Shown: piece after piece, positions 47,204 through 63,405 of the stretch | Layout: each line of letters begins with the position of its first letter | How positions within the stretch are numbered: the first letter of the stretch is position 1 | NCBI GenBank assembly: GCA_031423635.1 | Contig: JANPFX010000083.1 | Location: 5,108-69,107, forward strand | Direction of reading: 5' to 3' | DNA length: 64,000 nt | Source of the DNA: Acidimicrobiia bacterium | GTDB lineage: Bacteria; Actinomycetota; Acidimicrobiia; Acidimicrobiales; JANYDT01 | Position numbers and translations under genes: made by a program | Notes under the pieces: generated by a model | Database searches by the model: none | The model's input: the letters and a program-made list of their open reading frames with translations, nothing else | What the model was told of the DNA's origin: nothing

Positions 47204-47746
47204 GTGGTCTACACCCCGATCATCGGCACGCTGGCCTATGTCGTCGACCGCACATCGGACCGCGGTCCGGGCGGCGCAGCACTCCTCGTGCATCGCAACG
47301 CCCGACCCGACGATGAGCACCTCGGCAAATGGAACGGACTCGGCGGCAAGTTGGAGGCCGACGAGGACGTCGCCGCGGGACTACGGCGCGAGTTGCAGGA
47401 GGAGGCCGCGATCGAGGTCACCTCGATGCAGTTGCGCGGAACGGTGAGCTGGCCCGGTTTCGGGCCGAACGGTGAGGACTGGTTGGGCTTCGTCTTCCTC
47501 GTCGACGGGTGGACCGGAGTTCCCCCGTCGAGCAACGAGGAGGGCCGACTGGAATGGGTGCCGCTTCCGCGTCTGCTCCGGGCATGCAGTCCCGATGCCG
47601 GAGACCGCGAAGCGGCCGATCTCCCGATGTGGGAAGGCGACCGGTTCTTCCTACCGCTCGTTTTCGACGACGACCCGCGGTCCTTCCATGGCGTGATGCC
47701 CTACGAACAAGGTCGCCCGGTCGGTTGGACGTGGGAACGCTGGTGA
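47204..47746 (+). CDS. NUDIX hydrolase (MutT-like)
   Basis: Nudix box GKWNGLGGKLEADEDVAAGLRRELQEEAAIE. GTG start. Confidence 0.85.
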   Translation: MVYTPIIGTLAYVVDRTSDRGPGGAALLVHRNARPDDEHLGKWNGLGGKLEADEDVAAGLRRELQEEAAIEVTSMQLRGTVSWPGFGPNGEDWLGFVFLVDGWTGVPPSSNEEGRLEWVPLPRLLRACSPDAGDREAADLPMWEGDRFFLPLVFDDDPRSFHGVMPYEQGRPVGWTWERW

Positions 47747-49116
47747 CAACCAGGCCGGCCGCAGCCCGCAGCCGATGGAGACCCTTTGCTCTGACCCTGA
47801 TCGGCGCCTGCTCAGTCCTCGCCCGGCAGCCCCCATCCGCACCGGCATCGGGCCGGGTCGCAGCGACGGTCGATGGGCGCGTCGAATCGGTCGCCGCCCG
47901 CTTCGCACTGATCCGGTCGCACCTGGGCTACCGACACTGGACGCGATTGGACGAGGTGGTCGCGCTCGCCCAGGCCAAGGATGCCCCGAGCGGTCCGCTG
48001 ACCGGATTGATGGTCGCCGTGAAGGACAACATCGACCTCTCGTGGCTGCCCACGTCTGCTGGTGCCTCGGCCCTCCGCAACCGACGACCGGCTCGGAACG
48101 CGTCGGTCGTCGATCGACTGCTCGCGTCCGGGGCGGTGATCGCCGGCCACACGAACATGGACACCTGGGCACGCGGCGTCCGATCGGTCAGCGAAACATT
48201 CGGCGCGACGGCGAATGCGCTCAACCCGAGCCGCGGACCGATGGGTTCGAGCGGCGGCTCCGCCGTCGCAGTGGCGCTCGGAGAGGTCGATGCCGCTCTC
48301 GGAACGGACACGTGCGGCTCCCTGCGCTACCCCGCTGCAGCGAATGTCATCGTTGCGTTGCGTCCGACGCCGGGCCTGGTGAGCCGGGCCGGGATCGTCC
48401 CGCTCGCGCCGACTCAAGACGTCGTCGGCCCGATGGCAAGGGATGTCCGAATGCTCGCCCGCATGCTCGACGTAATCGCCGGAACGGACCCGCGGGACCC
48501 GCTCACACAGCTCGCTCCGCGTCCCGATCGCACGTACACAGAGGATCTACAGGGGCCGCGCGGACCGGTGTCGGGCGCGCCGCGTCGCTGGCGCGTCGGT
48601 GTCGTCCGGACGCTCGGGCCGTTTCGCCGCGACTCGACGGGTCTCACGATGCTCGACAAGATGAGTGCAGCAGGAATCGACCTCGTGAACGTCTCGATGG
48701 CGAAGGCTCCGTTCGCGGGCGTGATCGACGACGAGTCTGCGGCCACTCGCGCCCTTGTGCTGGCGGACGCGGACGAGTCAACGTGGCTCGTCGACTCCCT
48801 CCGGGTTCCGAACCGATCCACCTACGCGTCCCGGCTCCGTGACCGGAAGCTCTCCGCGTCCAGTCTCACGGCACTGCTCGACCGCAACGGTCTCGACGCG
48901 CTCACCTACCCGACGACCCCGTTCGGACCCGCTCTACGCGGTCAGCGTCAGGCGAGCGCGAACTGCCAGTTCTCCGCCACGAGTGGGTTGCCCGCTCTGG
49001 CGCTCGGACACGGCGTCGATGCTGACAACATCGCCGTTCCCGGTGTGGATCTGCTCGGCCGGGAGTTCGACGAGTCGACCCTTCTCCGCCTCGGACTGGC
49101 GATCACGGAGACGTGA
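47743..49116 (+). CDS. amidase-signature family enzyme with lipoprotein signal peptide
   Basis: The start is the GTG at 47743, overlapping the Nudix stop as GTGA. N-terminus RWRPFALTLIGAC carries a lipobox. AS motifs are VAVKDNID and GSSGGSAVAVALG...GTDTCGSLRYPA. Confidence 0.8.
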   Translation: MTTRPAAARSRWRPFALTLIGACSVLARQPPSAPASGRVAATVDGRVESVAARFALIRSHLGYRHWTRLDEVVALAQAKDAPSGPLTGLMVAVKDNIDLSWLPTSAGASALRNRRPARNASVVDRLLASGAVIAGHTNMDTWARGVRSVSETFGATANALNPSRGPMGSSGGSAVAVALGEVDAALGTDTCGSLRYPAAANVIVALRPTPGLVSRAGIVPLAPTQDVVGPMARDVRMLARMLDVIAGTDPRDPLTQLAPRPDRTYTEDLQGPRGPVSGAPRRWRVGVVRTLGPFRRDSTGLTMLDKMSAAGIDLVNVSMAKAPFAGVIDDESAATRALVLADADESTWLVDSLRVPNRSTYASRLRDRKLSASSLTALLDRNGLDALTYPTTPFGPALRGQRQASANCQFSATSGLPALALGHGVDADNIAVPGVDLLGREFDESTLLRLGLAITET

Positions 49117-49609
49117 GCCGGGCCATCTGCGCAGTGTGGACGGCGACGCAGGAGCGGGTGGCGTCGTCCGCGTCGACGCCACACCCGACGGAGGCGACGA
49201 CGACGACGTCGACTCGACCGAACGCCAGCGCCGACCAGATTGTCGTTCCCGCCCCGTCGTCCTCCGAAACCAATGCGACGGTCACCGAGTCGCAGTGCCG
49301 GACACCGGCGTTGCCGGCGTGCAGCTCCGACCACGAGTCGGCGACGCCGAGAACAGCGGCCGACGGATCCCCCAGCCGATAGAGCACCACCCGGGCCACG
49401 AGGTCCTGAGGATCGTCCAGCTTCCACCAGCACCTGAGCGCACCGACGCGGAAGCCTCGTGTACTCAGCCGACTTCGTTCGGCCTGCGGGTCCCGATGCA
49501 GCAGTGCAGCGTCCGGAAGGTCCAGAGCAGACGTCTCGACCTCGGTCGACAGCGGATCGAACGAAAACGACACGAGCAAGGCCGACAGTGACGGCAGTAC
49601 GCCGGTCAT
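49103..49609 (-). CDS. hypothetical protein (168 aa)
   Basis: A 4-nt overlap with the upstream membrane-protein gene suggests co-translation. No family was recognised. Confidence 0.45.
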   Translation of the reverse strand: MTGVLPSLSALLVSFSFDPLSTEVETSALDLPDAALLHRDPQAERSRLSTRGFRVGALRCWWKLDDPQDLVARVVLYRLGDPSAAVLGVADSWSELHAGNAGVRHCDSVTVALVSEDDGAGTTIWSALAFGRVDVVVVASVGCGVDADDATRSCVAVHTAQMARLTSP

Positions 49610-50169
49610 CTCACTGATCCCACGAAGGCGACGATCGAGAGGACCACGACGACCAGAGAGGCACCACGGCCGACTCGGAACTCGACCCGGCTCAGCCAGG
49701 CGCTCCGCTCAGCCATCTGCGTCCCGCTGCGAACGCTGGCCGACGAGACGTACATCGACAGTGCACGCATCAAGGCAAACACCAACGAGCCGACGACGAT
49801 CCACCCGGGACCGGAGATCGCCGCAACGACGAACGCCGCCCACCACACCCAGGAGACCAGGATCGTCGCCGGGCCGAAGCCCATACGGAAGCCGTAGCGC
49901 GCCGCGGCTTTCCAGGGCCCGAGGCGGTGTCCGTAGTCACGGGGGACCTGCCGGTGAACGGCGAGCGGACGGACCCCGCGGGAGCGGTTGACCGGGAAGG
50001 TGTCGAGACCGACTGCGAGGAGTCCGCCTGCTCCGGCGACACCGGCTGACATCGGGCCGATGCCGACGCCCTGGGCCACCAGAGCGGCAAGAAGTCCGGG
50101 GACGGTTCCGCCGATGAACGCCGAGAAGGCGAACACGGCGAGGTTGAGTGGCTGAAGCGCACGTCGCAC
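49606..50169 (-). CDS. hypothetical integral membrane protein (about 4 TM)
   Basis: The hydrophobic segments include NLAVFAFSAFIGGTVPGLLAALVA and LVSWVWWAAFVVAAI. There are no cysteines. Confidence 0.55.
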   Translation of the reverse strand: MRRALQPLNLAVFAFSAFIGGTVPGLLAALVAQGVGIGPMSAGVAGAGGLLAVGLDTFPVNRSRGVRPLAVHRQVPRDYGHRLGPWKAAARYGFRMGFGPATILVSWVWWAAFVVAAISGPGWIVVGSLVFALMRALSMYVSSASVRSGTQMAERSAWLSRVEFRVGRGASLVVVVLSIVAFVGSVR

Positions 50170-50267: not shown

Positions 50268-51821
50268 TTACTTCTTCGTCGCCTTCGTGGAGGACGTCGA
50301 TTCGGGAGCGGACGTCGTCGTCGTGGTTGTGATCGGCGCTGCACCCGGAGCGGTCCGCGGCGGCGGGGTCTGCGCCGGCGCAAAGCCGATCGGCCGCTTG
50401 TGACGGGCCCGCGGAACCACGCCGGGCACACTGGTCGACGGAGCCGGGCCGGACACACGGACCATCCCGATCGGACGCTCCTCGAGCGGTTGGGCGAAGA
50501 CCGGCAGACCGACCCCGTCGTCGTCACCCCGGAGGAACTGGCGGTCGTAGCCGTTGAGGGCGCCCTGCAACTCGAGCACGCCCGCGTCACCCAGCCCGCC
50601 GGGAACAGTGAGAACGCACTCGGCGACGGCGAACCGAGCCCGCCGGGCGACCAGCCAGTCGCGGAAGTCCGGCGAGATCACCGAGTCGTCGTGCACCAGC
50701 AATGGGCCGCCGACAGGAAGATAGCCACCACCCAGGCGCGCCGAGGACGCCGGGACGAACGCTAGACCGAAGGTACGACGGGGCTCGGCTGCGTCGAAGA
50801 GCCGATCGGCCAGGGCTCGGCTGAGCGTCCGCACGTTCCGACCGCTGATCCGCTCACCCTCGCCCACCAGCGAGGGATCGCCGGCGCCCTCGCCGACCAA
50901 GAGGCATGGACCAGATCGTCCGGACTGCCCGCGGAACGCGTTCACCGCATCCGTCCCGATCAGCAACGGCGAGCCGGTCGCTGCGGCGTAGGCGGACGCC
51001 GAGGCGGCAATGTCGAGACTCGGCGCGTCGGCACCGATGCACACCGCGCCAGTTCGTTCGGTCGAACCGGACACCAGGACGGCCACGTCCACGGAGGCCA
51101 CAGCGATATCGGTCGGCGAACCGACCAACGTCACTTCGATCGTCGCCGAACGCAGAGCGCCGAGCACGGCGTCGGAGACGCCTGCAGCGACGACAGTCGC
51201 CGAGCGGACCCCCAGTCGGGAGAGTTCGGGGAGCAGACCCGGCCGGAGCGATGCCGGGTCGGTGAGCACCAGTGGGGTTCCCGTGGAGTTCGCCAGCGGT
51301 CCGGCGATCGCCGCAGCCAGCACGTCGGCGGAAGCGATCACGACGCCCGGTGTCGATCCGGCGGGGCGCGTCGCGAGTCGGGCAAGCGAAAGGTCCGCGG
51401 CATCGGCGGCGTAGCTGCGTTCCAGCGCAACCTTCTGGAGCCGTGGATCCTCGAGGCAGCTCTCCACCATGCAGTACACGTTGTGCCCGTCGGGGCAGTA
51501 GCCGTGAACGTTCGGGTGGTTCCGCTTGCAGCAGTCGCAGATCTTCTTCAGACCGCCGTTGGTGCAGCAGCCGGGACTGGCGTACCAGCACCACCCCCAG
51601 ACCACGTCGGATCCGACGCAGTCATAGGTCGGGCACCTCGGCGACACGCCTGACTGCCCGCAGGCCCGCGCCTCGGCGCGAGTGGCGAACACGGAAGCCA
51701 GCGTCGCCCCGCCGGCGACGACAACCGCGGCCTTTCCCGTGGTGGCGATGAATGTGCGCCTCGTCGTCCGCGATGCCATCCACCGCGACGCGCGCTCGAC
51801 AACGCGGTCGAGGGAACTCAT
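50268..51821 (-). CDS. Tat-exported protein: 12-Cys MADH-light-chain-like module + three CWB2-like cell-wall-binding repeats + Thr/Lys tail
   Basis: Tat signal SRTTRRTFIATTGKAAVVVAGGATLASVFATRAEA. Cys module CGQSGVSPRCPTYDCVGSDVVWGWCWYASPGCCTNGGLKKICDCCKRNHPNVHGYCPDGHNVYCMVESC. There are three repeats of the type VVIASADVLAAAIAGPLANSTGTPLVLTD...ATVVAAGVSDAVLGAL. The ATG overlaps the upstream stop (ATGA). Confidence 0.75.
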   Translation of the reverse strand: MSSLDRVVERASRWMASRTTRRTFIATTGKAAVVVAGGATLASVFATRAEARACGQSGVSPRCPTYDCVGSDVVWGWCWYASPGCCTNGGLKKICDCCKRNHPNVHGYCPDGHNVYCMVESCLEDPRLQKVALERSYAADAADLSLARLATRPAGSTPGVVIASADVLAAAIAGPLANSTGTPLVLTDPASLRPGLLPELSRLGVRSATVVAAGVSDAVLGALRSATIEVTLVGSPTDIAVASVDVAVLVSGSTERTGAVCIGADAPSLDIAASASAYAAATGSPLLIGTDAVNAFRGQSGRSGPCLLVGEGAGDPSLVGEGERISGRNVRTLSRALADRLFDAAEPRRTFGLAFVPASSARLGGGYLPVGGPLLVHDDSVISPDFRDWLVARRARFAVAECVLTVPGGLGDAGVLELQGALNGYDRQFLRGDDDGVGLPVFAQPLEERPIGMVRVSGPAPSTSVPGVVPRARHKRPIGFAPAQTPPPRTAPGAAPITTTTTTSAPESTSSTKATKK

Positions 51822-52303
51822 CGAACGCCTCCGACACCGGACGAACCGAGCCTGGCTTCCCGGACCAGTTCTTCGATCTGCTCCAGTGAGTTCGCAACCC
51901 CGCGACCCCGGACGACACCGGCCGAATCAACCGCGACGACGTAGGGAGTGGACCTCACCGCCATTGCATCGAACACCGGCGCATCCGCGTCGAGGTCGAC
52001 AGTCTGCACGTGAAGTTCCCGGTACTGCCGGCGAAACGCATCGAGCGATGGACGAAGCTCCCGACAGAGCACACACGTCCGCGACGTGAAAAGCAGAACG
52101 GTGAGCACACTCGCCGACCAGTCGATACCCACAGCGGGTGCCCGAGCGTCGAGCTCGGGACCTTCGGAAGCGAAGTGCACACCCATCGGCGCGAGCCGCT
52201 GATGCAGGACCCCGATCTGGCGTAGCAGGGCCACCACGGCCACGGCGAGAACGGCCACGACGAGCCAGAGCGCCAGGAATGCGACGACCCAAGGTCCCGT
52301 CAT
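51818..52303 (-). CDS. MauD-like membrane-anchored thioredoxin-fold protein
   Basis: N-terminal TM WVVAFLALWLVVAVLAVAVVALL. CxxC motif in LLFTSRTCVLCREL. The C-terminal GVVRGRGVANSLEQIEEL resembles the MauD/TlpA-like end. Confidence 0.7.
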   Translation of the reverse strand: MTGPWVVAFLALWLVVAVLAVAVVALLRQIGVLHQRLAPMGVHFASEGPELDARAPAVGIDWSASVLTVLLFTSRTCVLCRELRPSLDAFRRQYRELHVQTVDLDADAPVFDAMAVRSTPYVVAVDSAGVVRGRGVANSLEQIEELVREARLGSSGVGGVR

Positions 52304-52304
52304 C

Positions 52305-52871
52305 TCACACGTCCGACCGGGAAGTGGGAAACACAGACCCGGTGACGAGCCTCAGTTCGGCCAAAGCGTGAATCAGAAGGCCGATGCTGACCACACCGAG
52401 GCCGACCATGAGACTCGCCAACCGCTCGACGGCGTCGATCGTCAGGACGGACGGGGCCGGCCAGGCGAGGAGCGATGCGGCAATCAGCCCGCCGTTGCGG
52501 AGAAGTGACACCGAGGTCACCGGGGTAGAAGATCCCGCGCCGAAACAACCGCAACGAACCGTTCGCCCCGTGGCGAGGGCCCGGCGGAGAAGCACCGCGA
52601 AGACCGCGAGAAGACCGGTGGCGGCGGCGGCGCCGGCCGCAGGAACGAAAAGAAGCATCATTGCCACGCCAAGTTCGACCGGGGCGACGAAGGAAGCGGC
52701 CACAGCGGGAACGCCGAGGGCGATCGTCGCCTCACCCGTTGCTGCGGGCGAACGGAGCTTGGCCACCGCTGCGACGACGAAGACGCCCGCGACGACGAAG
52801 GCACATGCCAGGGAAATCGTCGACAAGGAGACAGCCGTCAGTCGAGAAGGGAAAGCGCTTGTTTCGGACAC
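52305..52871 (-). CDS. MauE/DoxX-family membrane protein
   Basis: Four hydrophobic segments and the RCGCFG motif characteristic of MauE. The GTG start at 52871 overlaps the ferredoxin gene by 34 nt. An alternative start is the TTG at 52826. Confidence 0.7.
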   Translation of the reverse strand: MSETSAFPSRLTAVSLSTISLACAFVVAGVFVVAAVAKLRSPAATGEATIALGVPAVAASFVAPVELGVAMMLLFVPAAGAAAATGLLAVFAVLLRRALATGRTVRCGCFGAGSSTPVTSVSLLRNGGLIAASLLAWPAPSVLTIDAVERLASLMVGLGVVSIGLLIHALAELRLVTGSVFPTSRSDV

Positions 52872-53071
52872 ATGCGGACAGCGGTCTGGACGGCAACGCG
52901 TCGATCGGCTGATGGCTCCTCGTTCAGGATGACGAGTTCGTCGTTGTCGTCGATCTCGAAGATGTCGGGGGCATGACCGACGCAGAGTCCGTTGCTTTCA
53001 CACTTGGGACGGTCGACCGAGATGCGCACAGATTCATTCTGTCCGAACCGCGGAGCTACGCCGGGCATCAT
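52838..53071 (-). CDS. small [3Fe-4S]-type ferredoxin
   Basis: RISVDRPKCESNGLCVGHAPDIFEIDD...AVRMCPKQALSLL. The start was set at the MM pair (53071/53068). Confidence 0.8.
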   Translation of the reverse strand: MMPGVAPRFGQNESVRISVDRPKCESNGLCVGHAPDIFEIDDNDELVILNEEPSADRRVAVQTAVRMCPKQALSLLD

Positions 53072-53136
53072 CGGTCGCCCCGGCGGCCACCTGCCCGGTT
53101 GTGACTCTCGGCTCATCGTTCCCTACGTTGGTGTCC

Positions 53137-54402
53137 ATGACTTTTCGTGACGTCTTGGCGGTCGACGACATCAACCTGTCGGAACTCGAGTTCTGGGCTC
53201 GACCCCTCGCCGAACGCGAAGGCGCGTTTCACCGCCTGCGCACAGAGCGCCCGCTGGCCTTCTTCGCCGAGCCCAACATCGAGAGCGATCTGATTCCGGT
53301 CGGGCCCGGGTACTACGCGGTCACGAAGTACGACGACATCCTTGAGGTATCGAAGAACCCTGAGCTGTACTGCTCCGGACGCGGCGCCACATCGATCGCC
53401 GACATGCCCGATTTCATGCTCGACTTCTTCGGTTCCATGATCAACATGGACGACCCACGGCACGCCCGCCTCCGAAAGATCGTCTCCGCGGCGTTCACCC
53501 CGAGGATGCTCAAAGCCATCGAGGACCAGGTCGTCATCGCCGCACGGGAGATCGTCGACGATGTGCTCCGCAAGGGCGGCGGTGACTTCGTGACCGACGT
53601 CGCCGCCCGCCTTCCGCTCAAGGTCATCTGCGACATGATGGGGATTCCCGAATCCGAGTACGAGACCGTCTTCTCGAGGTCGAACGTCATCCTCGGGGCA
53701 GCCGACGCCGAATACGTTCCGCAGGGGAGCGCAGACGTTGTCATCAATGCGCTGCTCACGGCCGGAGGCGATCTCCACAAACTCGTCTCCGACCTGGGCG
53801 CGGCCCGACGAGCCGATCCGACGGACGACTTGACAAGCGCACTGGTGAACACCGAAGTCGATGGAGAGCGCCTCAGCGACAGTGAACTGGGGTCGTTCTT
53901 CATCCTCCTCGTCGTCGCCGGAAACGAGACCACCCGCAACGCCATCGCCCACGGGCTCGATCTGTTCACGAAGAACCCCGAACAGCGCGACTTCGTGGCC
54001 GCAGACATCCCTACGCGCATGCCGGGTGCGGTGGAGGAGATCGTCCGCGTCGCATCGCCGGTCGTCTGGATGCGACGCACGGCGACCAGGTCAGGGAGTC
54101 TTCGTGGCGTCGACTTCGCCGAGGGCTCGAAGTTCATCCTCTATTACTGGTCGGCCAACCGCGACACGGACGTGTTCACTGATCCGTATCGCTTCGACGT
54201 TTCGCGCTCGCCGAATCCCCACGTCGGCTTCGGCGGGCCCGGCCCGCACTTCTGCCTCGGCGCGCACCTCGCGCGTCGCGAGATCGGCGTGATGTGGAAG
54301 GAACTGCTCTCCCGCGCCCCGAAGGTTCAGGCCACGGCAGAGCCCGACCGTCTGCTCTCGTCGTTCATCAACGGCATCAAGCACCTCGAGTTCTCCGTCT
54401 GA
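53137..54402 (+). CDS. cytochrome P450
   Basis: Heme-binding loop FGGPGPHFCLGAHLARRE, I-helix VVAGNETTRN and the EIVR (ExxR) motif. The start is the ATG at 53137 (MTFRDV). Confidence 0.92.
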   Translation: MTFRDVLAVDDINLSELEFWARPLAEREGAFHRLRTERPLAFFAEPNIESDLIPVGPGYYAVTKYDDILEVSKNPELYCSGRGATSIADMPDFMLDFFGSMINMDDPRHARLRKIVSAAFTPRMLKAIEDQVVIAAREIVDDVLRKGGGDFVTDVAARLPLKVICDMMGIPESEYETVFSRSNVILGAADAEYVPQGSADVVINALLTAGGDLHKLVSDLGAARRADPTDDLTSALVNTEVDGERLSDSELGSFFILLVVAGNETTRNAIAHGLDLFTKNPEQRDFVAADIPTRMPGAVEEIVRVASPVVWMRRTATRSGSLRGVDFAEGSKFILYYWSANRDTDVFTDPYRFDVSRSPNPHVGFGGPGPHFCLGAHLARREIGVMWKELLSRAPKVQATAEPDRLLSSFINGIKHLEFSV

Positions 54403-54489: not shown

Positions 54490-55962
54490 TCACGATGCGG
54501 AGCGAAGGGCGCTCACCGTCCGGAGGAGCAACGTGAGCGCTGCGGCGGCACTCGCCGCGAGCAGTGCTGCGGTCGCCGCAAACCGAGCGGCCGGCGCGAG
54601 CTGACCGGACTCACTCAGACCGAGCAGGACTCCGCAGACGGCCACCGAGGCAACCACCGTGAACGCGACGGCACGGATCGGGAAGTCCACCCGCCACACG
54701 CGCTCGGACCGGACCAACCCCACAACGACGAGCAGCACGGATGTCGCCAACGATGCCCAGCAGGCACCGCTCTGGCCGAAGGGCGGCACGAGCGCCGCGC
54801 AAAGCGCGACATTCGCAACTGTTCCGCCGACCATGGTCTCGAACGCGGGCCGCCCGGTACCCACGATCGACGGGCCGGTGTTCACGATCGGTAGGGCGCC
54901 GCTGATGAGCATGGATGCCCCGAACACGAGGGATGGAACGGCGAGGTCGCGGAACCGGGCACCGAGGATGGGCAGCGCGACCGGGAAACCGGCGGCGAGG
55001 AAGATGCAGAAGAGGCCGGCGACGGCGGCGAAGCCGAGGAGCGCCGCCCGGTAGATGGGTTTGGCGCCCTCTCGGTCGGTAAGCGACAGGGCGTAGGGCT
55101 CCCAGGCCTGCTGCAGCGCCGTCGTGAAGAGTGTGACGACAGTCGCCAGCATGGCGACGACCTGGAACTTCCCGACCTCTCCGACGTCGGAGAAGGCCCG
55201 GATCAGCACCCTGGTGAGCAGCCCGAGGAGGAACGGCGACGCGACGGCCGGAAGCAGCGGCAGGCTGTAGCGCAGCATGATGCGCAGACGGCCGCGATCG
55301 ATGTGCGGGGCCCCGATGGTCGGCCACAGCTGCACGAGCCCTGCCACCGTGACGACCGCCCCGACCACCGCCTGGGCCGCAAACACCCCGGCGACCCCGG
55401 CATGTCCGACGCCGACCAGCCCGATGGTCAACAGCAGCGTGCCGAGCGCCACGGCACCGGCGACCACCAACGCGGGCATCGGCCGCCTCACCATCCGATA
55501 CCAATGCTGAAGGACGTTGATCATGGCGAGAGCCGGGATGGTCAGCGCAGCAGCCCTCGTGGCGCGCACCTCGCCCGCTGTTCCCTCGAAGACGAGCCGG
55601 GCGAAGGGTTCAGCCAGGATCACACCCACAACCGCCAGGAGTCCGGCAGAGAGCAGCGTCGCCCAGACCCAGGCCGAGAGCGTTCGTCGGCGATCCTCGC
55701 GAAGCGCGTCTCCGGTGAGGCCGGCCGCACCAGCCTCGTAGAACCATCTCGTCGCCCCCGAGTCGAGTCCTAACCCGGACGCGTACTGCAAGAGCAGCAG
55801 CGTCGAGGTCAGCAGCCCGAACACACCCAGTTCCGGGTCGGAGAGCCGGCGGGTCAGCAACGGCAGAAGAAGCACACCCGTGACCCGGGCGATGCCGATC
55901 GCCATCGCATAGACCGCTCCTTCGCGTATGGCCGACGGAACCTTCTCGATGCGACTCACCAC
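54490..55962 (-). CDS. polysaccharide/oligosaccharide flippase (Wzx-like, MOP superfamily)
   Basis: A 490-aa protein with about 12-14 TM segments. The N-terminus AIGIARVTGVLLLPLLTRRLSDPELGVF is typical of polysaccharide biosynthesis flippases. Confidence 0.75.
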   Translation of the reverse strand: MVSRIEKVPSAIREGAVYAMAIGIARVTGVLLLPLLTRRLSDPELGVFGLLTSTLLLLQYASGLGLDSGATRWFYEAGAAGLTGDALREDRRRTLSAWVWATLLSAGLLAVVGVILAEPFARLVFEGTAGEVRATRAAALTIPALAMINVLQHWYRMVRRPMPALVVAGAVALGTLLLTIGLVGVGHAGVAGVFAAQAVVGAVVTVAGLVQLWPTIGAPHIDRGRLRIMLRYSLPLLPAVASPFLLGLLTRVLIRAFSDVGEVGKFQVVAMLATVVTLFTTALQQAWEPYALSLTDREGAKPIYRAALLGFAAVAGLFCIFLAAGFPVALPILGARFRDLAVPSLVFGASMLISGALPIVNTGPSIVGTGRPAFETMVGGTVANVALCAALVPPFGQSGACWASLATSVLLVVVGLVRSERVWRVDFPIRAVAFTVVASVAVCGVLLGLSESGQLAPAARFAATAALLAASAAAALTLLLRTVSALRSAS

Positions 55963-56208
55963 GCGTCAGACCCGGACCGTCTTGTCGCCGTCAGCATCGC
56001 CGAAGGTTTAGCAGGCGGGCCGGAAACGATCGGAACCGACGATGTCACGGCCGGCTCCGGCTTGAACGAACGCAGCGCCGCTAGGGTCGGAACTGATGCC
56101 TGCCTCGACGTCAGCCTCGACAGGGCCCGAGCACGCAGTCGGACCACTGAACGGCGGTCTACGCCAAGCCGTGGACGTGCGAACGAACGTCATCCAGCTC
56201 CGGGTTCC

Positions 56209-58656
56209 ATGACCTCGTTCCTGCTCGCCTCGTTGTTCGCCGTCACCGTGGCATCGGCGGCGTCCCTCGTCGCGGCCACGGTCTTCAGCGGAAACGTCCC
56301 TGACGTTCGTCGTTCGCTCTCTGGCGCGGTGTCGATCATCATCGTGGGGGGGTCGTCGCTCGGCGCCGGGCTTGCCTCGGGCGCACCTACTGGTTCACGA
56401 GCCGTTGATCTCGGTTACCGCGTCGGCTTCGGCGCCGTACTCCCGGTCGCCGGGGGAGCCTGTTCGCTCGCCCTGCTCACGCTCGGCGGAGTTGCCGCGG
56501 CTGCTGCACTCCTCACCGGCGCGGGAACTGCAGCTCCCCTGGCCATGGCAAGCCTCATCCCGGGCGCAACGTTCGGCGTCCACCGCGGCCGGACATCGCA
56601 GGGCGACGCCCGTGGCGATTCGGCCGGGGCGCTCCAACTCAGTCACCTCACACGCCTCGGCTGCGGTGGTCTCCTGGCGAACGCGCTCCTTCGGCTGCCC
56701 ACTGATTTCTGGGTGGGTGTTCCCACGGTGGTCGCTGGCGCCATCGCGGTGATCGTTCTTGCGGGCGCGATCCGGCAGACGTCGCGGCGGACCCGCCGGG
56801 CCGTCCTCACCGGAGTAGCCGCAGCAGCGTTGGCGGCGGGTGTCGCCGCGGCACTCGCCGGATTCGCGGCACGAGAGGCCCGCACGTCGGCGGAGGCCGG
56901 CATCGATGCCGCACGCGAGGCACTCGGAGCGGCGCGGCGTGGCGACTCCGACGCGGCGACGATCGGCTTCCAGAACGCCACGAGGCTGTTTCGAGCGGCC
57001 GATCGGGGCCTTCGCGCACCCCGCACATCGCTCGGGACGTTCGTGCCGATCGTTGGTCCGAACCTGCGTGTCGCTCGACGCTTCACCGCCGCTGGCGCCG
57101 ATGTGGCCGAGACCGCAGCCACCGCAGTCGGTGCGGCAAATCTCTCCGACATGCGGCTCGAAGATGGCCGCATCGACGTCGACAGGATCGACGCGCTCCG
57201 GCTGCCCGTCGGGAGAGCACGCGACGCTGTGGAGCGCGCCTTCGCGTCGCTCGCAACGGCCGACGGCCCATGGACGGCCACCGTCATCAGGAACAAGGTG
57301 CGTTCGCTCCGCACCGAACTCGTCGACGCCCGGAAGTCGACGGCCGACGCAGGCGCGATCCTGGCCGCGCTGCCCGACCTTCTCGGCCGTTCCGGGCCGA
57401 GGCGCTATCTCATCGTCGTGCCCTCGCCCGCGGAGGCGAGCGGAAGCGGGGGCCTCATCGGCAACTACGGCGAGATCACCGCGGTCAACGGCAGGGTGAG
57501 CCTCTCCCGTTTCGGACGGACGATCGAACTCAATCGAAACGGTGTGCCCGGACCGCAGCGAGTTCTCCGCGCACGACCCGACTACATACGCCGGTACACC
57601 CAGTTCGAGGTGTCGCAGCTCTGGCAGAACGTCACCCTCTCGCCCGACTTCCCGTCGTCGGCCGAGGCAATGGCGTCGCTCTACCCGCAGTCCGGGGGCT
57701 CCGAGGTCGACGGCATCTTCAGCGCCGACCCCTACGCGCTCGCAGCAATACTACGGATCACCGGACCCGTTGCCTTGGCCGACTGGCCCGAACCGATCAC
57801 CGCCGAGAACGCCCCGCGAATCCTTCTTCACGATTGGTATTCGCAACTGACGGAAGAGCGCAACCTCGAACGTATCGACCTGCAGGGAGAGGTCGCTTCG
57901 GAAGCGTGGTCCCGGTTGTTCACTGCGCCGATCCCGCCGATGGGGACGCTGGGTGCCACCATGGGTGACGTCGTACGTTCGCGTCATCTGCAATTCTGGG
58001 CGCGGCGTGAACGGGAGCAGGCGTTCTTCCGCCAGCTTGGTTTGGACGGTTCGATGGGACCGCTCGAGGGTGATGGGTTCGCGGCCGTGACCAACAACGC
58101 CGGTGCCAACAAGATCGAGTGGTACCTGTACCGCACGATCGGGTACGACGCTCAGATCGACGTCGCCACCGGCAGGGTGCGATCGACCGCAACGATCGAG
58201 ATGCGCAACGAGGCTCCGGCCGTCGGGGAACCGCCATACGTCATCGGGAACGGTGCGACGCCGCCCGCACCCGAAGGCACGTCGATCCAGTACCTGTCCC
58301 TCTACTCTCCGCTGCGTCTCGTGGGGGCGACCTTCGACGGCGTTCCATTGGAGATGACCAGCGAGATCGAGCTTGGGCGGAACGTCTACTCGGGCTGGAT
58401 CCGCATTCCGCCGAAAGGCAACGGCACCGTCGTCGCCGAATTCGAAGGTGTCCTCGAGTCGGTCTGGACGGAGGGGTACTCCGTGGAGCTCGGCTGCCAA
58501 GCCATGGTCAACCCCGACCAGGCTCGCGTGCGCTTGCGGATCTCACCGGTGAGCGCATCGGTGTCCGACGACGGCGAACGGACCCTCGCTGCTGACGAAC
58601 CGTTGGTCTGCCGGAAGCGCTACCGGCTCGGTCAGACGCCGTCCGCGCCGCGCTGA
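56209..58656 (+). CDS. DUF4012 domain membrane protein
   Basis: An N-terminal polytopic region is followed by RYLIVVPSPAEASGSGGLIGNYGEITAVNGRVSL and FSADPYALAAILRITGPV. The start was set at the ATG at 56209. Confidence 0.75.
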   Translation: MTSFLLASLFAVTVASAASLVAATVFSGNVPDVRRSLSGAVSIIIVGGSSLGAGLASGAPTGSRAVDLGYRVGFGAVLPVAGGACSLALLTLGGVAAAAALLTGAGTAAPLAMASLIPGATFGVHRGRTSQGDARGDSAGALQLSHLTRLGCGGLLANALLRLPTDFWVGVPTVVAGAIAVIVLAGAIRQTSRRTRRAVLTGVAAAALAAGVAAALAGFAAREARTSAEAGIDAAREALGAARRGDSDAATIGFQNATRLFRAADRGLRAPRTSLGTFVPIVGPNLRVARRFTAAGADVAETAATAVGAANLSDMRLEDGRIDVDRIDALRLPVGRARDAVERAFASLATADGPWTATVIRNKVRSLRTELVDARKSTADAGAILAALPDLLGRSGPRRYLIVVPSPAEASGSGGLIGNYGEITAVNGRVSLSRFGRTIELNRNGVPGPQRVLRARPDYIRRYTQFEVSQLWQNVTLSPDFPSSAEAMASLYPQSGGSEVDGIFSADPYALAAILRITGPVALADWPEPITAENAPRILLHDWYSQLTEERNLERIDLQGEVASEAWSRLFTAPIPPMGTLGATMGDVVRSRHLQFWARREREQAFFRQLGLDGSMGPLEGDGFAAVTNNAGANKIEWYLYRTIGYDAQIDVATGRVRSTATIEMRNEAPAVGEPPYVIGNGATPPAPEGTSIQYLSLYSPLRLVGATFDGVPLEMTSEIELGRNVYSGWIRIPPKGNGTVVAEFEGVLESVWTEGYSVELGCQAMVNPDQARVRLRISPVSASVSDDGERTLAADEPLVCRKRYRLGQTPSAPR

Positions 58657-58686
58657 CCGGCATCAGAAGCGGGCGGTCGGGGGGCT

Positions 58687-59103
58687 TCAGGCGGTGCGGC
58701 GACGACGGCGACGACCAACGAGCACGAATGCCGCACCGGCGCCGACCAGCGCAGCACCTGCGGCGGTGAGCGGAACGGTGGCGTTCGAGCCGGTGAAGGC
58801 CGGCTGGCTGAAGCTCTCACCAAGGACCGACGCCGAAGCGGGCGCGACCGAAGGCTCGGGCGCAGCCTTCGTCGACGGGAGCACCGTTGCGGGCGCCGAC
58901 GAGGGCGCCGGCGGAACCGAGGTGCCCGGAGCCGACGACGGGGGCACAGACGACGGGGGCACAGACGACGACACGACCGTCGGGGGCACTGTCGACGGTG
59001 GTGTGATCGGATACTGCGTCTGCGCACCGGCGTGACTCACGCCCCCGAACACGGTAAGGCCCGCGGCGAGGAGGAAGGCGAATCGGAATCGAGACCTGTT
59101 CAC
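58687..59103 (-). CDS. secreted Pro/Ser-rich protein with sortase-type C-terminal sorting signal (variant motif)
   Basis: Signal peptide FAFLLAAGLTVFGGVSHAGA and VPPSS repeats. The C-terminus is QPAFTGSN + hydrophobic AAGAALVGAGAAFVLVG + RRRRRR. The start is the GTG at 59103. Confidence 0.65.
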   Translation of the reverse strand: MNRSRFRFAFLLAAGLTVFGGVSHAGAQTQYPITPPSTVPPTVVSSSVPPSSVPPSSAPGTSVPPAPSSAPATVLPSTKAAPEPSVAPASASVLGESFSQPAFTGSNATVPLTAAGAALVGAGAAFVLVGRRRRRRTA

Positions 59104-59425
59104 ACCGCCATTCTCACACAGCGTGGTCAATAGTGCAACCGTGAACGGCCGATCAGGCCGAAGGACCCAACGTTTGGAGCCGAATGGCCACCGGAAGGGG
59201 CACCGGGGAAAAACCGAACCGTGGAACCGGAGCGCGAAAAGGAGCACCCAGATTCATGTCCGGCTTCACCCCTCGCCCAACGCGCGAGCCCGGCGGGACT
59301 AGCTTCGACCCTCGAACGTTCGCCGTGCAACGCTCGCTGGATGGCCGCTCAGCGTTGACACGAGTAGTCACTGTCCGTGTACGGTGGAGCGAATTAACCA
59401 CTCAGAGCGCGCATCAGGAGAAGGC

Positions 59426-60445
59426 ATGAGAGTCGTTGTCACTGGACATGAAGGGTACGTAGGGGCGGTCCTCGTACCGCTCCTGGTCGACGCCGGACAC
59501 GAGGTGATCGGGCTTGACAGCGGCCTGTTCCGCGGATGCGACCTTTCCCAGGTGCTCGCAGTACCCATGATCGAACGCGACACTCGCGACGTCACGCCCG
59601 CCGATCTCGAAGGCGCCGACGCCGTGATCCACTTGGCGGCGATCTCCAACGACCCGATCGGGCACCTCAACCCGCAGATCACCTACGACGTCAACCACCT
59701 CGCGTCGGTTCGGCTCGCCCGGGTGGCGAAGGAGGCCGGCGTCGGTCGCTTCCTGTTCTCTTCGTCATGTTCGCTCTACGGCAAGGGGGGCGACGCGGAA
59801 GTTGACGAGGGCGGGCAGTTCCAGCCGGTCACGCCGTATGGCGAGTCCAAGGTCTTGGCCGAGCAGGACATCGCCGCTCTCGCCGACGACACGTTCTCGC
59901 CGACGTACCTCCGGAACGCGACTGCGTACGGTGCGTCACCCAGGCTGCGCGGCGACATCGTTGTCAACAACCTCACGGGATTCGCCTACACCGTCGGGGA
60001 AGTCCGCCTCCAGAGCGACGGAACGCCGTGGCGGCCCCTCGTCCACGTCGAGGACATCAGCCGCGCCTTCCTCGCCATCATGGAAGCCCCGCGCGACTGG
60101 ATCCACAACGAGGCGTTCAACGTCGGCATGCCCGGCGAGAACTACCAGATCCGAGACGTCGCCAACATCGTGATGGAAACGGTGCCGGACAGCAGGATCA
60201 CGTTCGCTGCCGACGCCGGCCCGGACCTCCGCAACTACCGGGTCAGCTTCGACAAGCTGGCCAGCAGGGTTCCGACCTTCCGACCGAAGTGGAACGTCCG
60301 ATCCGGCGCCGCACAACTGCTCGAGGCATTCAAGTTGGGGGGCCTAACGCTCGAAGACCTAACCGGGCCGAAATTCACTCGTCTCGAAAAGGTGAAGCTC
60401 CTCATGCTCGACGGACGACTGACCGCCGAGCTCCGCTGGAACTGA
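59426..60445 (+). CDS. NAD-dependent sugar epimerase/dehydratase (extended SDR)
   Basis: [13 protein letters not shown] (GxxGxxG) and YGESKVLAE (YxxxK). A GGAGAAGG RBS lies before the ATG at 59426. Confidence 0.88.
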
Positions 60446-60552
60446 CACCGACAACCCGAATCGACCAAAGACCACCGACCCGTGCCTCGCTGCACCACGA
60501 CCGACCCGCCGAGGAGCTTCTCGGCGGGGCCCCAGAACTGGAGACACCACCG

Positions 60553-61101
60553 ATGAAGTTCACCGAGCTCGGAATTCCCGGGGTCTTCGCGGTCGACCTC
60601 GACGAGCGTTCCGACGATCGCGGCTTCTTCGCCCGCTCGTACTGCGACGACGAGTTCGCCGCACACGGCCTGGCCAGTCACATGGTTCAGACGAACGTCA
60701 GTTTCAACCACCTGGCCGGCACCATTCGCGGGATGCACATGCAGCGGGAACCGCACGGCGAGGTGAAGCTCGTGCGGGCTGTTCGAGGCGCAATCCTCGA
60801 TGTCGTCGTGGACATGCGGCGCGATTCGTCGTCCTACCTCAGCAGCGTTGCCGTCGAACTCACGGATACAAATCGCCGAGCGCTCTATGTGCCCATCGGA
60901 TTCGCGCACGGATACCAGGCGCTGACAGACAGCGCCGAGGTCCTCTACCAGGTGTCGACCGTCTACGCCCCAGGGTTCGAACAGGGCTACCGATTCGATG
61001 ATCCCTCGTTCGGCATCGACTGGCTGCTTCCCGTGAGTGCGATCTCCGAGAAGGACGCCACCTGGCCATTGCTCGCCAACGAAGAGCAGGGCGCGGCGTA
61101 G
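60553..61101 (+). CDS. dTDP-4-dehydrorhamnose 3,5-epimerase-like cupin
   Basis: DDRGFFARSY...GTIRGMHMQ...KLVRAVRGAILDVVVDMR...LYVPIGFAHGYQAL...YRFDDPSFGIDW. The start is the ATG at 60553. Confidence 0.88.
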   Translation: MKFTELGIPGVFAVDLDERSDDRGFFARSYCDDEFAAHGLASHMVQTNVSFNHLAGTIRGMHMQREPHGEVKLVRAVRGAILDVVVDMRRDSSSYLSSVAVELTDTNRRALYVPIGFAHGYQALTDSAEVLYQVSTVYAPGFEQGYRFDDPSFGIDWLLPVSAISEKDATWPLLANEEQGAA

Positions 61102-61105
61102 CGCC

Positions 61106-62398
61106 ATGCACATCATCGACAACGCCTTACGGCGACGCGCCGAAGAGGGGCGTCCCATTCGCGTCGGCATGATCGGTGCTGGGTTCATGGCCGACGGTCT
61201 CACCAATCAGATCGTGAATTCGACGCCCGGCATGGAACTCGTGGCGATCGCCAACCGCACTCCGGAGAAGGCCGCTGCGCTCTTCACGAAGGCCGGCGTT
61301 CCTTCGCGTCGGGTCGACACACAAGCGGCCTTTGCTGCCGCGACGGAGGCCGGTATCGCCGCCGTCACAGCAGATCCGTTCCTGCTGTGCGAATCCCCTG
61401 CGATCGATGTCATCGTGGAAGTGACCGGCGCCATCGAGTACAGCGCACACATCGTCGTACGGGCGATGGAACACGGGAAGCACGTCGTGTTGATGAACGC
61501 GGAGCTCGATGGAACCATCGGGCCGATCCTCAAGACCTACGCCGATCGTGCTGGTGTCATCCTCACGGGTTGCGACGGTGATCAACCCGGTGTGGAGATG
61601 AACCTGTTCCGTTTCGTGAAGGGCATGGGACTCACACCACTGGTCTGCGGGAACATCAAGGGCCTTCAGGACCCCTACCGCACGCCGACGACGCAGGCCG
61701 GTTTCGCCGAGAAATGGGGGCAGAATCCGACGATGGTCACCAGCTTCGCCGATGGTACGAAGATCTCGTTCGAGCAGGCAATCGTGGCGAACGCGACCGG
61801 AATGAAGGTGGCTAGGCGTGGCATGGTCGGCGCCGAGTTCGCAGGACACGTCGATGAGCTCACGACGCACTACGACATCGATGAACTGCGCGCGAACGGC
61901 GGCTTCGTCGACTACGTCGTTGGCTTCAACATCAAGCCCGGACCAGGCGTGTTCGTCCTCGCCACCCACGACGACCCGAAGCAGCGCCATTACCTGAACC
62001 TCTACAAACTCGGCGAAGGCCCGCTGTACTCCTTCTATACGCCGTACCACCTCTGTCATTTCGAAGTCCCGTCCTCGATCGCCCGGGCCGTGATCTTCGG
62101 TGATGCGGTCCTGCAACCGCTGGATGGACCGCTCGTCGACGTGATCACCACGGCGAAGACCGACCTTGCGGCGGGAACTGTCCTCGACGGGATGGGCGGC
62201 TTTCACACCTATGGCCAAGCAGAGAACCACTCCGTCGTTCGAGCCGAGGCTCTTCTCCCGATGGGACTGGCCGAAGGCTGCACCTTGCGTCGGGCCGTTG
62301 CGAAGGACGCCGTTCTCACGTACGACGACGTGGAGGTCCCTCCCGGTCGTCTCTGCGATGCACTGCGACGGGAGCAAAACGAGCGGTGGCCGGCGTGA
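61106..62398 (+). CDS. NAD(P)-binding oxidoreductase with C-terminal SAF domain (homoserine-dehydrogenase-like)
   Basis: IRVGMIGAGFMADG...GCDGDQPGVEMNLFRFVKGMGL...NIKGLQDPYRTPTTQAGFAEKWGQNPTMVTSFADGTK. Confidence 0.75.
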   Translation: MHIIDNALRRRAEEGRPIRVGMIGAGFMADGLTNQIVNSTPGMELVAIANRTPEKAAALFTKAGVPSRRVDTQAAFAAATEAGIAAVTADPFLLCESPAIDVIVEVTGAIEYSAHIVVRAMEHGKHVVLMNAELDGTIGPILKTYADRAGVILTGCDGDQPGVEMNLFRFVKGMGLTPLVCGNIKGLQDPYRTPTTQAGFAEKWGQNPTMVTSFADGTKISFEQAIVANATGMKVARRGMVGAEFAGHVDELTTHYDIDELRANGGFVDYVVGFNIKPGPGVFVLATHDDPKQRHYLNLYKLGEGPLYSFYTPYHLCHFEVPSSIARAVIFGDAVLQPLDGPLVDVITTAKTDLAAGTVLDGMGGFHTYGQAENHSVVRAEALLPMGLAEGCTLRRAVAKDAVLTYDDVEVPPGRLCDALRREQNERWPA

Positions 62399-63405
62399 CC
62401 AGCCCCTCTTCGGGCTTCGTCGAGGCCGCACCTCTCGACACGGACGTGCGGGTCTCGGTCATCGTTCCCGGCCGCAACGTCGAAGCCACCCTTGCGCAGA
62501 CGCTCGACTCGCTTCTCGCTCAGACGTTCTCGGACTTCGAGCTGATCTTCTCGGACAACGGATCAACAGATCGCACCGTCGAGATCGCGAAGAGCTACTG
62601 CAGGCGCTTCAAAGCATTGCGAGTGATCGACGCTTCGGTCTCACCGGGGTCAGGGTTCGCACGGCGAGCCGGTGTCGAGGTGGCGAGCGGCGACCTGTTG
62701 ATCTTCATCGACTCCGACGATGTGGTGAGCGAGAACTACATCGAGGCGATGTCGGCGGCTCTGCGGACGAGGACGTTCGTGCACGGCGCCCAGGACATGA
62801 CCCTGCTCAACCCGACCTGGGTGAGTCAGGTCCAGCCAGGACGGGGTTCGCGAACCGAGACGGTGGGTGGCTGGAAGTTCGCCGGCAGCGCAACACTCGG
62901 CGTCCGCCGAGGTGCCTACGACGCGGTCGGTGGCTTCTGCACCGAACCCGAGATCGCCGAGGACAACGACTTCTGCTTCCGCATGAGGGTGGCTGGGCAT
63001 GATCTGCAGGTGGTCCCAGAGGCCATCGTGCATGTCCGCCAGAAGTTCACGTTCAAGTCGGCGTTCAATCAGGGGCGGTACTACGGCCGGTGCCACGGTC
63101 ATACGAACCGACTGTGGCGACCGATGGGTCTGCCGGTGGAGTCGGAATGGACACTCGCCGGCCGCGCCCTGCGGCTGTTCACGCCCCGGCGGCTTCGATC
63201 CTTGCGTTCCCTCAAGGGACGTTATCCGTGGATCGTGGAAGTCGGTTCGGTGGGAGCGCGGGTATGGGCAAATGTCAAAGACGTCGTCACCCGGCGCGAG
63301 TTCCGACCTGCGACGGGTCTGATCAGACCGAGCGTCGATCCGTTCCTCGAACCATTCCGGGCGCAGCGTCACGAACGCCCCGAAGGACAGCCACCTGCAG
63401 TGTGA
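62386..63405 (+). CDS. family 2 glycosyltransferase
   Basis: VSVIVPGRNVEATLAQTLDSLLAQTFSDFELIFSDNGSTDRT...LIFIDSDD. An alternative start is the GTG at 62395, which forms a GTGA overlap with the upstream stop. Confidence 0.88.
   Translation: MAGVTSPSSGFVEAAPLDTDVRVSVIVPGRNVEATLAQTLDSLLAQTFSDFELIFSDNGSTDRTVEIAKSYCRRFKALRVIDASVSPGSGFARRAGVEVASGDLLIFIDSDDVVSENYIEAMSAALRTRTFVHGAQDMTLLNPTWVSQVQPGRGSRTETVGGWKFAGSATLGVRRGAYDAVGGFCTEPEIAEDNDFCFRMRVAGHDLQVVPEAIVHVRQKFTFKSAFNQGRYYGRCHGHTNRLWRPMGLPVESEWTLAGRALRLFTPRRLRSLRSLKGRYPWIVEVGSVGARVWANVKDVVTRREFRPATGLIRPSVDPFLEPFRAQRHERPEGQPPAV

Follow-up and report, generated by a model that had tools for sequence, protein, structure and literature searches.

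A 64,000-nucleotide stretch of DNA from an Acidimicrobiia bacterium (contig JANPFX010000083.1, positions 5,108 to 69,107; hereafter the window) carries a gene for a 517-residue protein. Directly behind its leader lies a short module with 12 Cys residues, and this module defines an unnamed and very highly conserved 12-Cys domain in an envelope protein of uncultured Acidimicrobiia. The gene stands in a cassette in which the maturation core of the mau cluster, E-D-A(-F), has been put to use for another Cys-rich cargo, not for a subunit of methylamine dehydrogenase (MADH). We consider it probable, although far from settled, that the module is a new disulfide-rich domain folded oxidatively by a dedicated MauE/MauD system, to which a MauA-type leader guides it. 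An earlier reading of the DNA letters (the original prediction) had connected the module with MauA, the MADH light chain, and its MauE and MauD partners. That connection was borne out for the leader and the operon by profile comparison (hhalign) and by the MauE, MauD and MauF-like homologies. It was not borne out for the mature module.

Architecture of the protein

From its N-terminus onwards, the 517-residue protein has a leader, the 12-Cys module and a triple CWB2 body, and then a conserved C-terminal segment that leads into a Pro/Thr tail. The corresponding features are as follows.

50268..51821, minus strand: whole cargo gene, an open reading frame (ORF) of 517 residues, predicted to be exported and anchored to the cell wall
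51663..51821, minus strand: leader, residues 1-53, of the MauA type with twin arginines
51456..51662, minus strand: 12-Cys module, residues 54-122 of the 517-residue protein
50592..51428, minus strand: triple CWB2 body (cell wall binding 2 repeats), residues about 132-410
50442..50591, minus strand: conserved C-terminal segment, residues 411-460, without family assignment
50268..50441, minus strand: Pro/Thr/Ser-rich low-complexity tail with the stop codon, residues 461-517

The minus-strand translation of 51456-51662 is CGQSGVSPRCPTYDCVGSDVVWGWCWYASPGCCTNGGLKKICDCCKRNHPNVHGYCPDGHNVYCMVESC. It has 69 residues with 12 Cys and 3 Trp, and it confirmed the length, position and Cys count of the original prediction. 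Four His had been counted there, and the module has three (H102, H106 and H113). The Cys spacing is C-8-C-4-C-9-C-6-CC-8-C-1-CC-10-C-7-C-4-C, and the Trp cluster reads WGWCW.

The full-length AlphaFold2 (AF2) model reached a predicted local distance difference test (pLDDT) score of 87.3 and a predicted template modelling (pTM) score of 0.83. Within it, residues 61-130 had block-mean pLDDT values of 82-94, and the module formed three long beta strands (residues 73-81, 92-100 and 113-121). The identical strands were obtained when the module was modelled alone (pLDDT 78). The module is thus predicted to be a compact three-stranded beta mini-domain. A Foldseek search of its model against 350,542 PDB chains gave a best E of 1.7 and TM scores below 0.4 with no light chain listed, Foldseek being weak on small disulfide-rich domains. 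Because no PDB fold matched, neither the MADH light-chain fold nor a named knottin or zinc-ribbon fold can be assigned to the module. A single-sequence phmmer search with the N-terminal 140 residues against the PDB gave chance-level matches only. A lipoprotein with Cys at its mature N-terminus was also considered and ruled out, since residues -3 to -1 (A-R-V/A) form no lipobox.

The body consists of three tandem CWB2 repeats. The family profile matched PDB sequences of Cwp6 (6.9e-19), Cwp8 (1.6e-16) and the high-molecular-weight (HMW) subunit of SlpA (about 1e-9). The full-length model retrieved the same three proteins by Foldseek at E values from 2.8e-11 (Cwp6) to 1e-7, with a TMt of 0.63 and a root mean square deviation of 3.6 against SlpA (7acy_B). 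The single 517-residue sequence matched Pfam PF04122 below threshold (14.2 versus 24.9 bits), and this was the only Pfam match of the protein. The segment that follows carries the motif LQxALNGxD..L.G..G.GLPV..QP.EER..G.ARV with invariant Q419, L430, G432, G438 and G452. Its mean pairwise identity of 0.55 is above that of the CWB2 body (0.33). The tail is variable in length and missing from many homologues (family alignment columns 540-695); its pLDDT was about 50-60 and rose to 74-80 only in a short part around residues 481-500.

Conservation and distribution of the module

At least 275 homologues of the 517-residue protein were found at E≤1e-3. All of them are unnamed "hypothetical" proteins of about 460-570 residues. 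A module of 65-71 residues with exactly 12 Cys was present in all 120 homologues listed, and the 12 Cys are invariant by per-column count in the 121 aligned sequences. Also invariant in this alignment are G55, Q56, T65, D67, W79, Y80, K92, K93, D96, G107, Y108, P110, E120 and S121. The other two Trp positions vary, with Trp in 111 and Phe in 10 sequences at W75, and with Trp in 99, Tyr in 20 and Phe in 2 at W77. No His is invariant: H102 is His in 54, Trp in 34 and Tyr in 31 sequences, H106 is His in 87 and Gln in 34, and H113 is Ser in 45, Thr in 27 and His in 24. The mean pairwise identity of the module is 0.77, against 0.33 in the next 280 residues, which form the CWB2 body. The module is real, far beyond chance, and under very strong constraint.

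The module is also rare. Its profile, searched against 1.84 billion representative proteins, retrieved only 52 clusters, almost all of one architecture. No MauA was among them, and the others were only fragments, frameshifted copies and a small sister family. Two repetitive matches (P0155 and P0156) were set aside as low-complexity Cys repeats. In two metagenome proteins (P0151 and P0160), a MauD-like sequence is fused to the leader and module, or the module is degraded. These sequences are apparently frameshifted or mis-called, and errors of assembly or gene calling are more probable here than new architectures. In a scan of 185,579 species genomes the module was present in 112. The 80 of these that were listed are all uncultured metagenome-assembled genomes (MAGs), labelled Acidimicrobiia, Acidimicrobiales, Actinomycetes or Actinomycetota with the exception of one MAG labelled Acidobacteria. 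A class-wide envelope protein is therewith defined for the Acidimicrobiia, an abundant lineage known here from MAGs.

The MauA-type leader

The leader begins with LDRVVERASRWMASRTTRRTF, continues with a hydrophobic region and ends with AEAR/A. In the window protein the twin-arginine motif is RTTRRTF, and AEAR(A/V) directly precedes Cys54. R21 and R22 are invariant in the family alignment, and F24 is conserved in at least 90%. For comparison with MauA, a reference set of 116 full-length MauA homologues was used; profiles were compared by hhalign, and the Paracoccus denitrificans MauA precursor sequence was checked against the PDB. The leader matched the MauA leader at an E of 2.6e-15 (Prob 98.5). 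When only the 15 columns that precede the twin arginines (fD..vE..sR..A) were compared, the E was 8e-9 with a score of 27.3, whereas shuffled controls reached at most 12.4. The PDB profile search also returned the MADH light-chain precursor 3c75_L (E 0.013), with the match confined to residues 3-38. The NCBIfam model TIGR02659 matched 15 of 37 family members (best E 1.6e-5), and the generic signal model TIGR01409 for twin-arginine translocation (Tat) matched 5 of 37. The leader is homologous to the MauA leader.

From its S/T-R-R-x-F-L motif, its hydrophobic region and its AxA site, the leader fits a Tat signal, and Tat export is predicted. No description of a MauA-leader motif was found in the literature.

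Partner genes of the cassette

The Cys-rich gene is flanked by the following genes.

52305..52871, minus strand: membrane protein resembling MauE, with a CGC motif (VRCGCFG); disulfide generator of the DsbB type
51818..52303, minus strand: MauD-like membrane-anchored thioredoxin-fold protein with a CVLC motif
49606..50169, minus strand: MauF-like/DsbD_2-like polytopic membrane protein of 187 residues, downstream of the cargo gene
49103..49609, minus strand: orf168, a 168-residue protein whose start overlaps the MauF-like stop by 4 nt

The two genes upstream are genuine homologues of MauE and MauD. MauE matched Pfam PF07291 at E 6e-18 and Methylobacterium MauE by BLASTP at 8e-6 around the CGC motif. 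CxC was found in 67 of 68 MauE orthologues, CGC in 54 of these. The exact start of MauE is uncertain because its ORF overlaps an upstream ferredoxin ORF. MauD matched NCBIfam TIGR02661 at E 4.8e-16, which is below the equivalog cut-off, and Pfam Thioredoxin at 5.6e-6. Against the bona fide Methylobacterium MauD the BLASTP value was 2e-22, and the match included the N-terminal LLRQxGxLHxR..PMG anchor region. CxxC is present in all 83 MauD orthologues. The MauD stop codon overlaps the cargo start as ATGA, the stops and starts of the three genes are overlapping or adjacent, and they are arranged as E-D-cargo, just as the canonical mau cluster has E-D-A. Scanning the operon for promoters and terminators added nothing informative.

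In 84 loci, out of the 112 species genomes with the module, MauE, MauD, the cargo gene and the MauF-like gene follow one another on one strand wherever the flanks permit. Practically all loci with enough flank have the MauF-like gene downstream of the Cys-rich one. The MauF-like protein has an invariant RQVP..W and a YG..G motif and no conserved Cys. Its family alignment matched Methylobacterium MauF by hhalign (Prob 89.8, E 1.8e-6, 140 columns), and two of its aligned relatives matched Pfam PF13386 DsbD_2 (best E 6.6e-8).

Only tentatively can orf168 be regarded as a cassette member. A same-strand gene of 163-176 residues lies at its position in three related loci (L001-L003). It evolves fast, and tblastn detected it in closer relatives only. 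It showed no Pfam match, no structural clue and no clear relation to the fifth gene of the sister cassette described below.

Other genes of the mau cluster were searched for. With Methylobacterium MauB, MauG, MauC, MauJ, MauL, MauM and MauN as queries, tblastn found no match at E≤0.01, either in the window or in the 86 related loci. No Radical_SAM family, to which QhpD belongs, was among the called neighbours in loci L001-L004, and no LodB-type flavoprotein was among the called neighbours.

A sister family of small proteins

A rare sister family consists of stand-alone proteins of 126-142 residues (P0162, P0164, P0285 and P0286) with the same leader type. Its Cys domain matched the module by hhalign with Prob 97.9 and E 3.5e-13. 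Two of these proteins (P0164 and P0285) occupy the X position in a MauE - MauD - X - MauF/DsbD_2 cassette. In mature form the small proteins open with HH.CGHTG (NH.CGHTG in P0286), and this His-rich N-terminus is missing from the family of the window protein. The sister cassettes lie at L085:2896-6451 and L086:4052-7865. On their 3' side are genes for a membrane-anchored protein, possibly an anti-sigma factor, and for an extracytoplasmic function (ECF) sigma factor, with a CAP-domain protein nearby.

A MauE-MauD-cargo(-MauF) core with a MauA leader therefore exists as a self-contained cassette which serves at least two non-MADH cargo families. That it serves both a CWB2 fusion and small proteins of about 130 residues points to leader-guided, dedicated oxidative folding.

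Comparison of the module with quinone light chains

The original prediction had described the Cys and Trp spacing of the module as MauA-like. Compared with mature MauA by hhalign, the module gave a score of 22.5, Prob 12% and P 0.002. As a control, 30 column-shuffled module profiles were compared in the same way, and their mean score was 14.3 with a maximum of 24.2. The score of the module lies inside the shuffled range and so does not exceed what a Cys-rich profile gives as background. MauA also has 12 Cys, but their spacing (C-5-C-6-C-1-C-7-C-14-C-15-CC-7-C-1-C-20-C-11-C) differs from that of the module, and no global hhalign alignment of the two was obtained. At E≤0.1 the protein showed no match to Pfam PF02975 (Me-amine-dh_L). 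Its match to TIGR02659 (E 0.004) had 17 bits against a cut-off of 196.85. The module-only profile found no chain of MADH, aromatic amine dehydrogenase (AADH) or quinohemoprotein amine dehydrogenase (QHNDH) in the PDB at E≤10, and neither the family nor the module profile matched the gamma chain of QHNDH (QhpC) in the PDB at this threshold. Neither the sister family nor a combined profile bridged the module to MauA (Prob 3.8-6.7%).

The best hhalign alignment placed KICDCC..GYCPxG..VESC on ICDCS..CPPGT..WVASC in the N-terminal half of MauA. Trp57 of MauA, which takes part in the tryptophan tryptophylquinone (TTQ) cofactor, then falls on M118, a column with Val in 49, Ile in 46, Met in 21 and Ala in 5 sequences. 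In the alignment of the original prediction, in which a CP..W..C..DCC pattern was laid on MauA, Trp57 falls on W75 instead. This alignment was recovered only as the second suboptimal hhalign match (score 10.2, P 0.45), and W75 loses its parallel to a TTQ-forming Trp through the Phe in 10 of 121 homologues. In neither case does the Trp108 loop of MauA have a counterpart in the module. The doubt about a classical TTQ cross-link that the original prediction had itself expressed was justified by this missing loop and by the lack of MauG and MauB. The original prediction had also named two outcomes that would speak against a light chain. One, a Cys pattern that cannot be superimposed on the MADH light chain, was found; the other, a knottin-like or zinc-ribbon-like fold, was not, as no fold matched at all. 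Considering the hhalign score at control level, the absence of PF02975, PDB and fold matches and the unconserved TTQ Trp positions, the module is, by sequence comparison, neither a demonstrable MADH light-chain homologue nor a recognisable quinone enzyme.

The same comparison bears on a diverged remnant. The module could be what is left of a MADH-type light chain, namely its N-terminal half (about residues 25-62 of MauA), after CWB2 had taken the place of the C-terminal half and the cofactor had been lost. This would agree with the homologous leader, with the position of the gene in the MauA slot after MauE and MauD, and with the pairs vWGwC/yWRhC, KICDCC/nICDCs, GYCPxG/nCPPGT and VESC..DP/VaSC.NP that hhalign aligned at P 0.002. 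However, the score lies within the range of the shuffled controls and the HH probability is low, and of the six MauA disulfides five would be left without a partner. Foldseek showed no similarity to light-chain structures, and the sister family as an intermediate did not improve the match. We regard descent of this kind as unlikely.

A cofactor made without classical TTQ was also considered. The module may carry a cross-linked or quinone cofactor, either TTQ-like, cysteine tryptophylquinone (CTQ)-like or of the Cys-Trp or Cys-Tyr type, at C78-W79-Y80, and may thus be a redox or catalytic centre on the cell wall. W79, Y80, D96, E120, K92 and K93 are invariant, and an identity of 0.77 speaks more for an active site than for a scaffold. 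The leader, MauE, MauD and the MauF-like protein are common to the sole system known to make TTQ light chains. The first hydroxylation of Trp57 in MauA is reportedly independent of MauG. On the other hand, homologues of MauG, MauB, amicyanin and MauJ/L/M/N are missing from the 64-kb window and the 86 related loci, and the called neighbours include neither a QhpD-type radical-SAM protein nor a LodB-type flavoprotein. The module gave no significant alignment with mature MauA and has no PF02975, PDB sequence or fold match. The position of Trp57 is taken by M/V/I118 or by the W75 that can be Phe, and Trp108 has no equivalent loop. A cofactor of this kind is therefore very unlikely in our estimate. 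Just as improbable, in our judgement, is a more far-reaching version, in which the MauA-type leader would be a portable tag, similar to the leader of a ribosomally synthesised and post-translationally modified peptide (RiPP). It would bring unrelated Cys-rich cargos to MauF/MauE/MauD, and the 12-Cys core with C78-W79-Y80, D96 and E120 would hold a novel cross-link or redox centre in a CWB2-tethered enzyme made without MauG. Nothing so far indicates new chemistry.

Disulfides or metal in the 12-Cys head

The 12 Cys could alternatively be metal ligands. In that case an Fe-S, Cu(I)-thiolate or Zn cluster might be loaded in the cytoplasm and the holo-domain exported by Tat, while MauE and MauD served another purpose or controlled the thiol state. 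Tat is the usual route for metalloproteins that are loaded with their cofactor before export, and the leader has the invariant RR. The CC and CDCC motifs resemble metallothionein-like thiolate clusters, and the mature part of the small homologues opens with the His-rich HH.CGHTG. However, in about 85 genomes the gene is translationally coupled to those of a DsbB-type oxidase and its DsbA-type partner, and this coupling favours disulfides. The module has no canonical CxxCxxC...CP ferredoxin motif. The His-based metal site proposed in the original prediction is not sustained, since the module has three His and not four and none of them is conserved in the 121 sequences. In addition, AF2 gave a confident compact beta-sheet without a ligand. 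MauA, with the same leader type and 12 Cys, forms six disulfides and is not known to bind metal, as in MADH structures such as 2BBK. We hold metal loading to be decidedly unlikely.

Oxidative folding by the cassette, as we propose it, would join the gene architecture, the leader, MauE, MauD and MauF-like homologies, the synteny, the conservation and the CWB2 fold that were observed. Its putative parts are the disulfide state, the recognition role of the leader, the sequence of steps in the redox relay and a binding role for the head. The segment of the MauA-type leader before the twin arginines (D..vE..sR..A.RTsRR.FL) would be a tag that couples export to the oxidative-folding machine of the operon. 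MauE would act as a DsbB-like, quinone-linked membrane oxidase which re-oxidises the CxxC of MauD through its CGC site, and MauD would put disulfides into the 12-Cys domain. The MauF-like membrane protein would assist, possibly by helping the leader to link export with the folding machine. The leader would be cleaved at AxA just before R52-V/A-C54, and the folded head would then be displayed on the CWB2 body, which would hold it on a wall glycopolymer. The head is most likely a rigid mini-domain with six disulfides; the even number of invariant Cys (12) counts for the disulfide reading. The extreme conservation of its non-Cys surface residues suggests that it binds a conserved partner or ligand.

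Several points weigh against this proposal. The oxidised state of the 12 Cys is one that we infer, and what suggests a recognition tag in the N-terminal region of the leader is its co-conservation. Tat classically carries proteins that fold or load cofactors in the cytoplasm. The Tat route therefore fits awkwardly with disulfide formation after export, and MauA poses the same paradox. Any function given to the head is a guess, and the 77% conservation could equally mean catalysis or a cofactor. The MauF-like assignment comes from one profile-sequence comparison at 90% probability and is accordingly a putative one. Finally, MauE may be a generalist oxidase here rather than a dedicated one, as has been argued for MauE (bioRxiv 10.64898/2026.03.05.709764).

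Relation to known systems

The closest known system is MauA with mauF/E/D in the mau cluster of Paracoccus and Methylobacterium. Long twin-arginine leaders with the same conserved N-terminal region occur in both, as do small exported domains with 12 Cys. The genes stand in the order MauE, MauD and cargo in either case, with a MauF-like membrane protein nearby. In contrast to MauA, the mature domain described here carries a CWB2 wall anchor as a fusion and lacks the TTQ tryptophans, and its alignment with MauA does not rise above chance. In contrast to the mau cluster, the loci have no MauB heavy chain, MauG, amicyanin or MauJ/L/M/N, and the host belongs to the monoderm Acidimicrobiia and not to the Proteobacteria. 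To our knowledge, no mechanism has been defined to date for MauD or MauF. The operon is a simple system for asking about the roles of MauD, MauF and the N-terminal region of the leader.

MauE was described as a generalist oxidase that replaces DsbB in E. coli through its CXC motif, probably via a thioredoxin-fold partner (Gonzalez et al., bioRxiv 10.64898/2026.03.05.709764). The MauE of the window has likewise a CGC(F)G motif and a thioredoxin-fold partner and occurs outside MADH-containing genomes. Unlike the generalist, however, it is translationally tied to one Cys-rich cargo with a MauA-type leader and a MauF-like gene. This tight link to one specific cargo suggests a dedicated, leader-guided system. 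In Streptomyces, MauE and MauD have been noted beside precursors with at least 8 Cys in candidate RiPP clusters (decRiPPter, PMC7794033). These clusters also combine actinobacterial MauE/MauD and a Cys-rich product without other mau genes, a likeness of gene context. Their products are short predicted peptides, whereas the cargo here is a 517-residue wall protein or, in the sister family, a protein of 126-142 residues.

The body resembles Cwp6, Cwp8 and the SlpA HMW subunit of C. difficile in its three tandem CWB2 repeats. The identity to the C. difficile CWB2 proteins is only 12-15%, and a 69-residue 12-Cys head takes the place of an amidase or of the low-molecular-weight surface-layer protein (LMW-SLP) partner. 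The host is of an actinobacterial class, and the leader is of the Tat type. CWB2 wall anchoring is thereby placed in a class distant from the Clostridia, the group for which structural studies of it exist.

Genomic neighbourhood

A polysaccharide-biosynthesis cluster (window 54490-63405) adjoins the operon. By analogy with C. difficile, its product could be the wall glycopolymer to which the CWB2 body attaches. Its genes, followed by the others near the cassette, are listed here.

54490-55962, minus strand: Wzx-like flippase (PF01943)
56062-58656, plus strand: DUF4012 protein
59384-60445, plus strand: NAD epimerase/dehydratase
61037-62398, plus strand: DRL-type oxidoreductase
62386-63405, plus strand: GT2 glycosyltransferase
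52838-53116, minus strand: small 4Fe-4S ferredoxin ORF, overlapping the annotated MauE start on the same strand
53101-54402, plus strand: cytochrome P450-like gene, divergent from the ferredoxin ORF
47509-49116, plus strand: amidase-family gene (PF01425, 1.6e-66), converging on the cassette end

The ferredoxin and P450-like genes are kept only in the closest relatives (L005, L006, L008, L009, L011 and L012) and therefore probably lie outside the cassette. The amidase gene was found at the same relative position in several, although not most, of the related loci.

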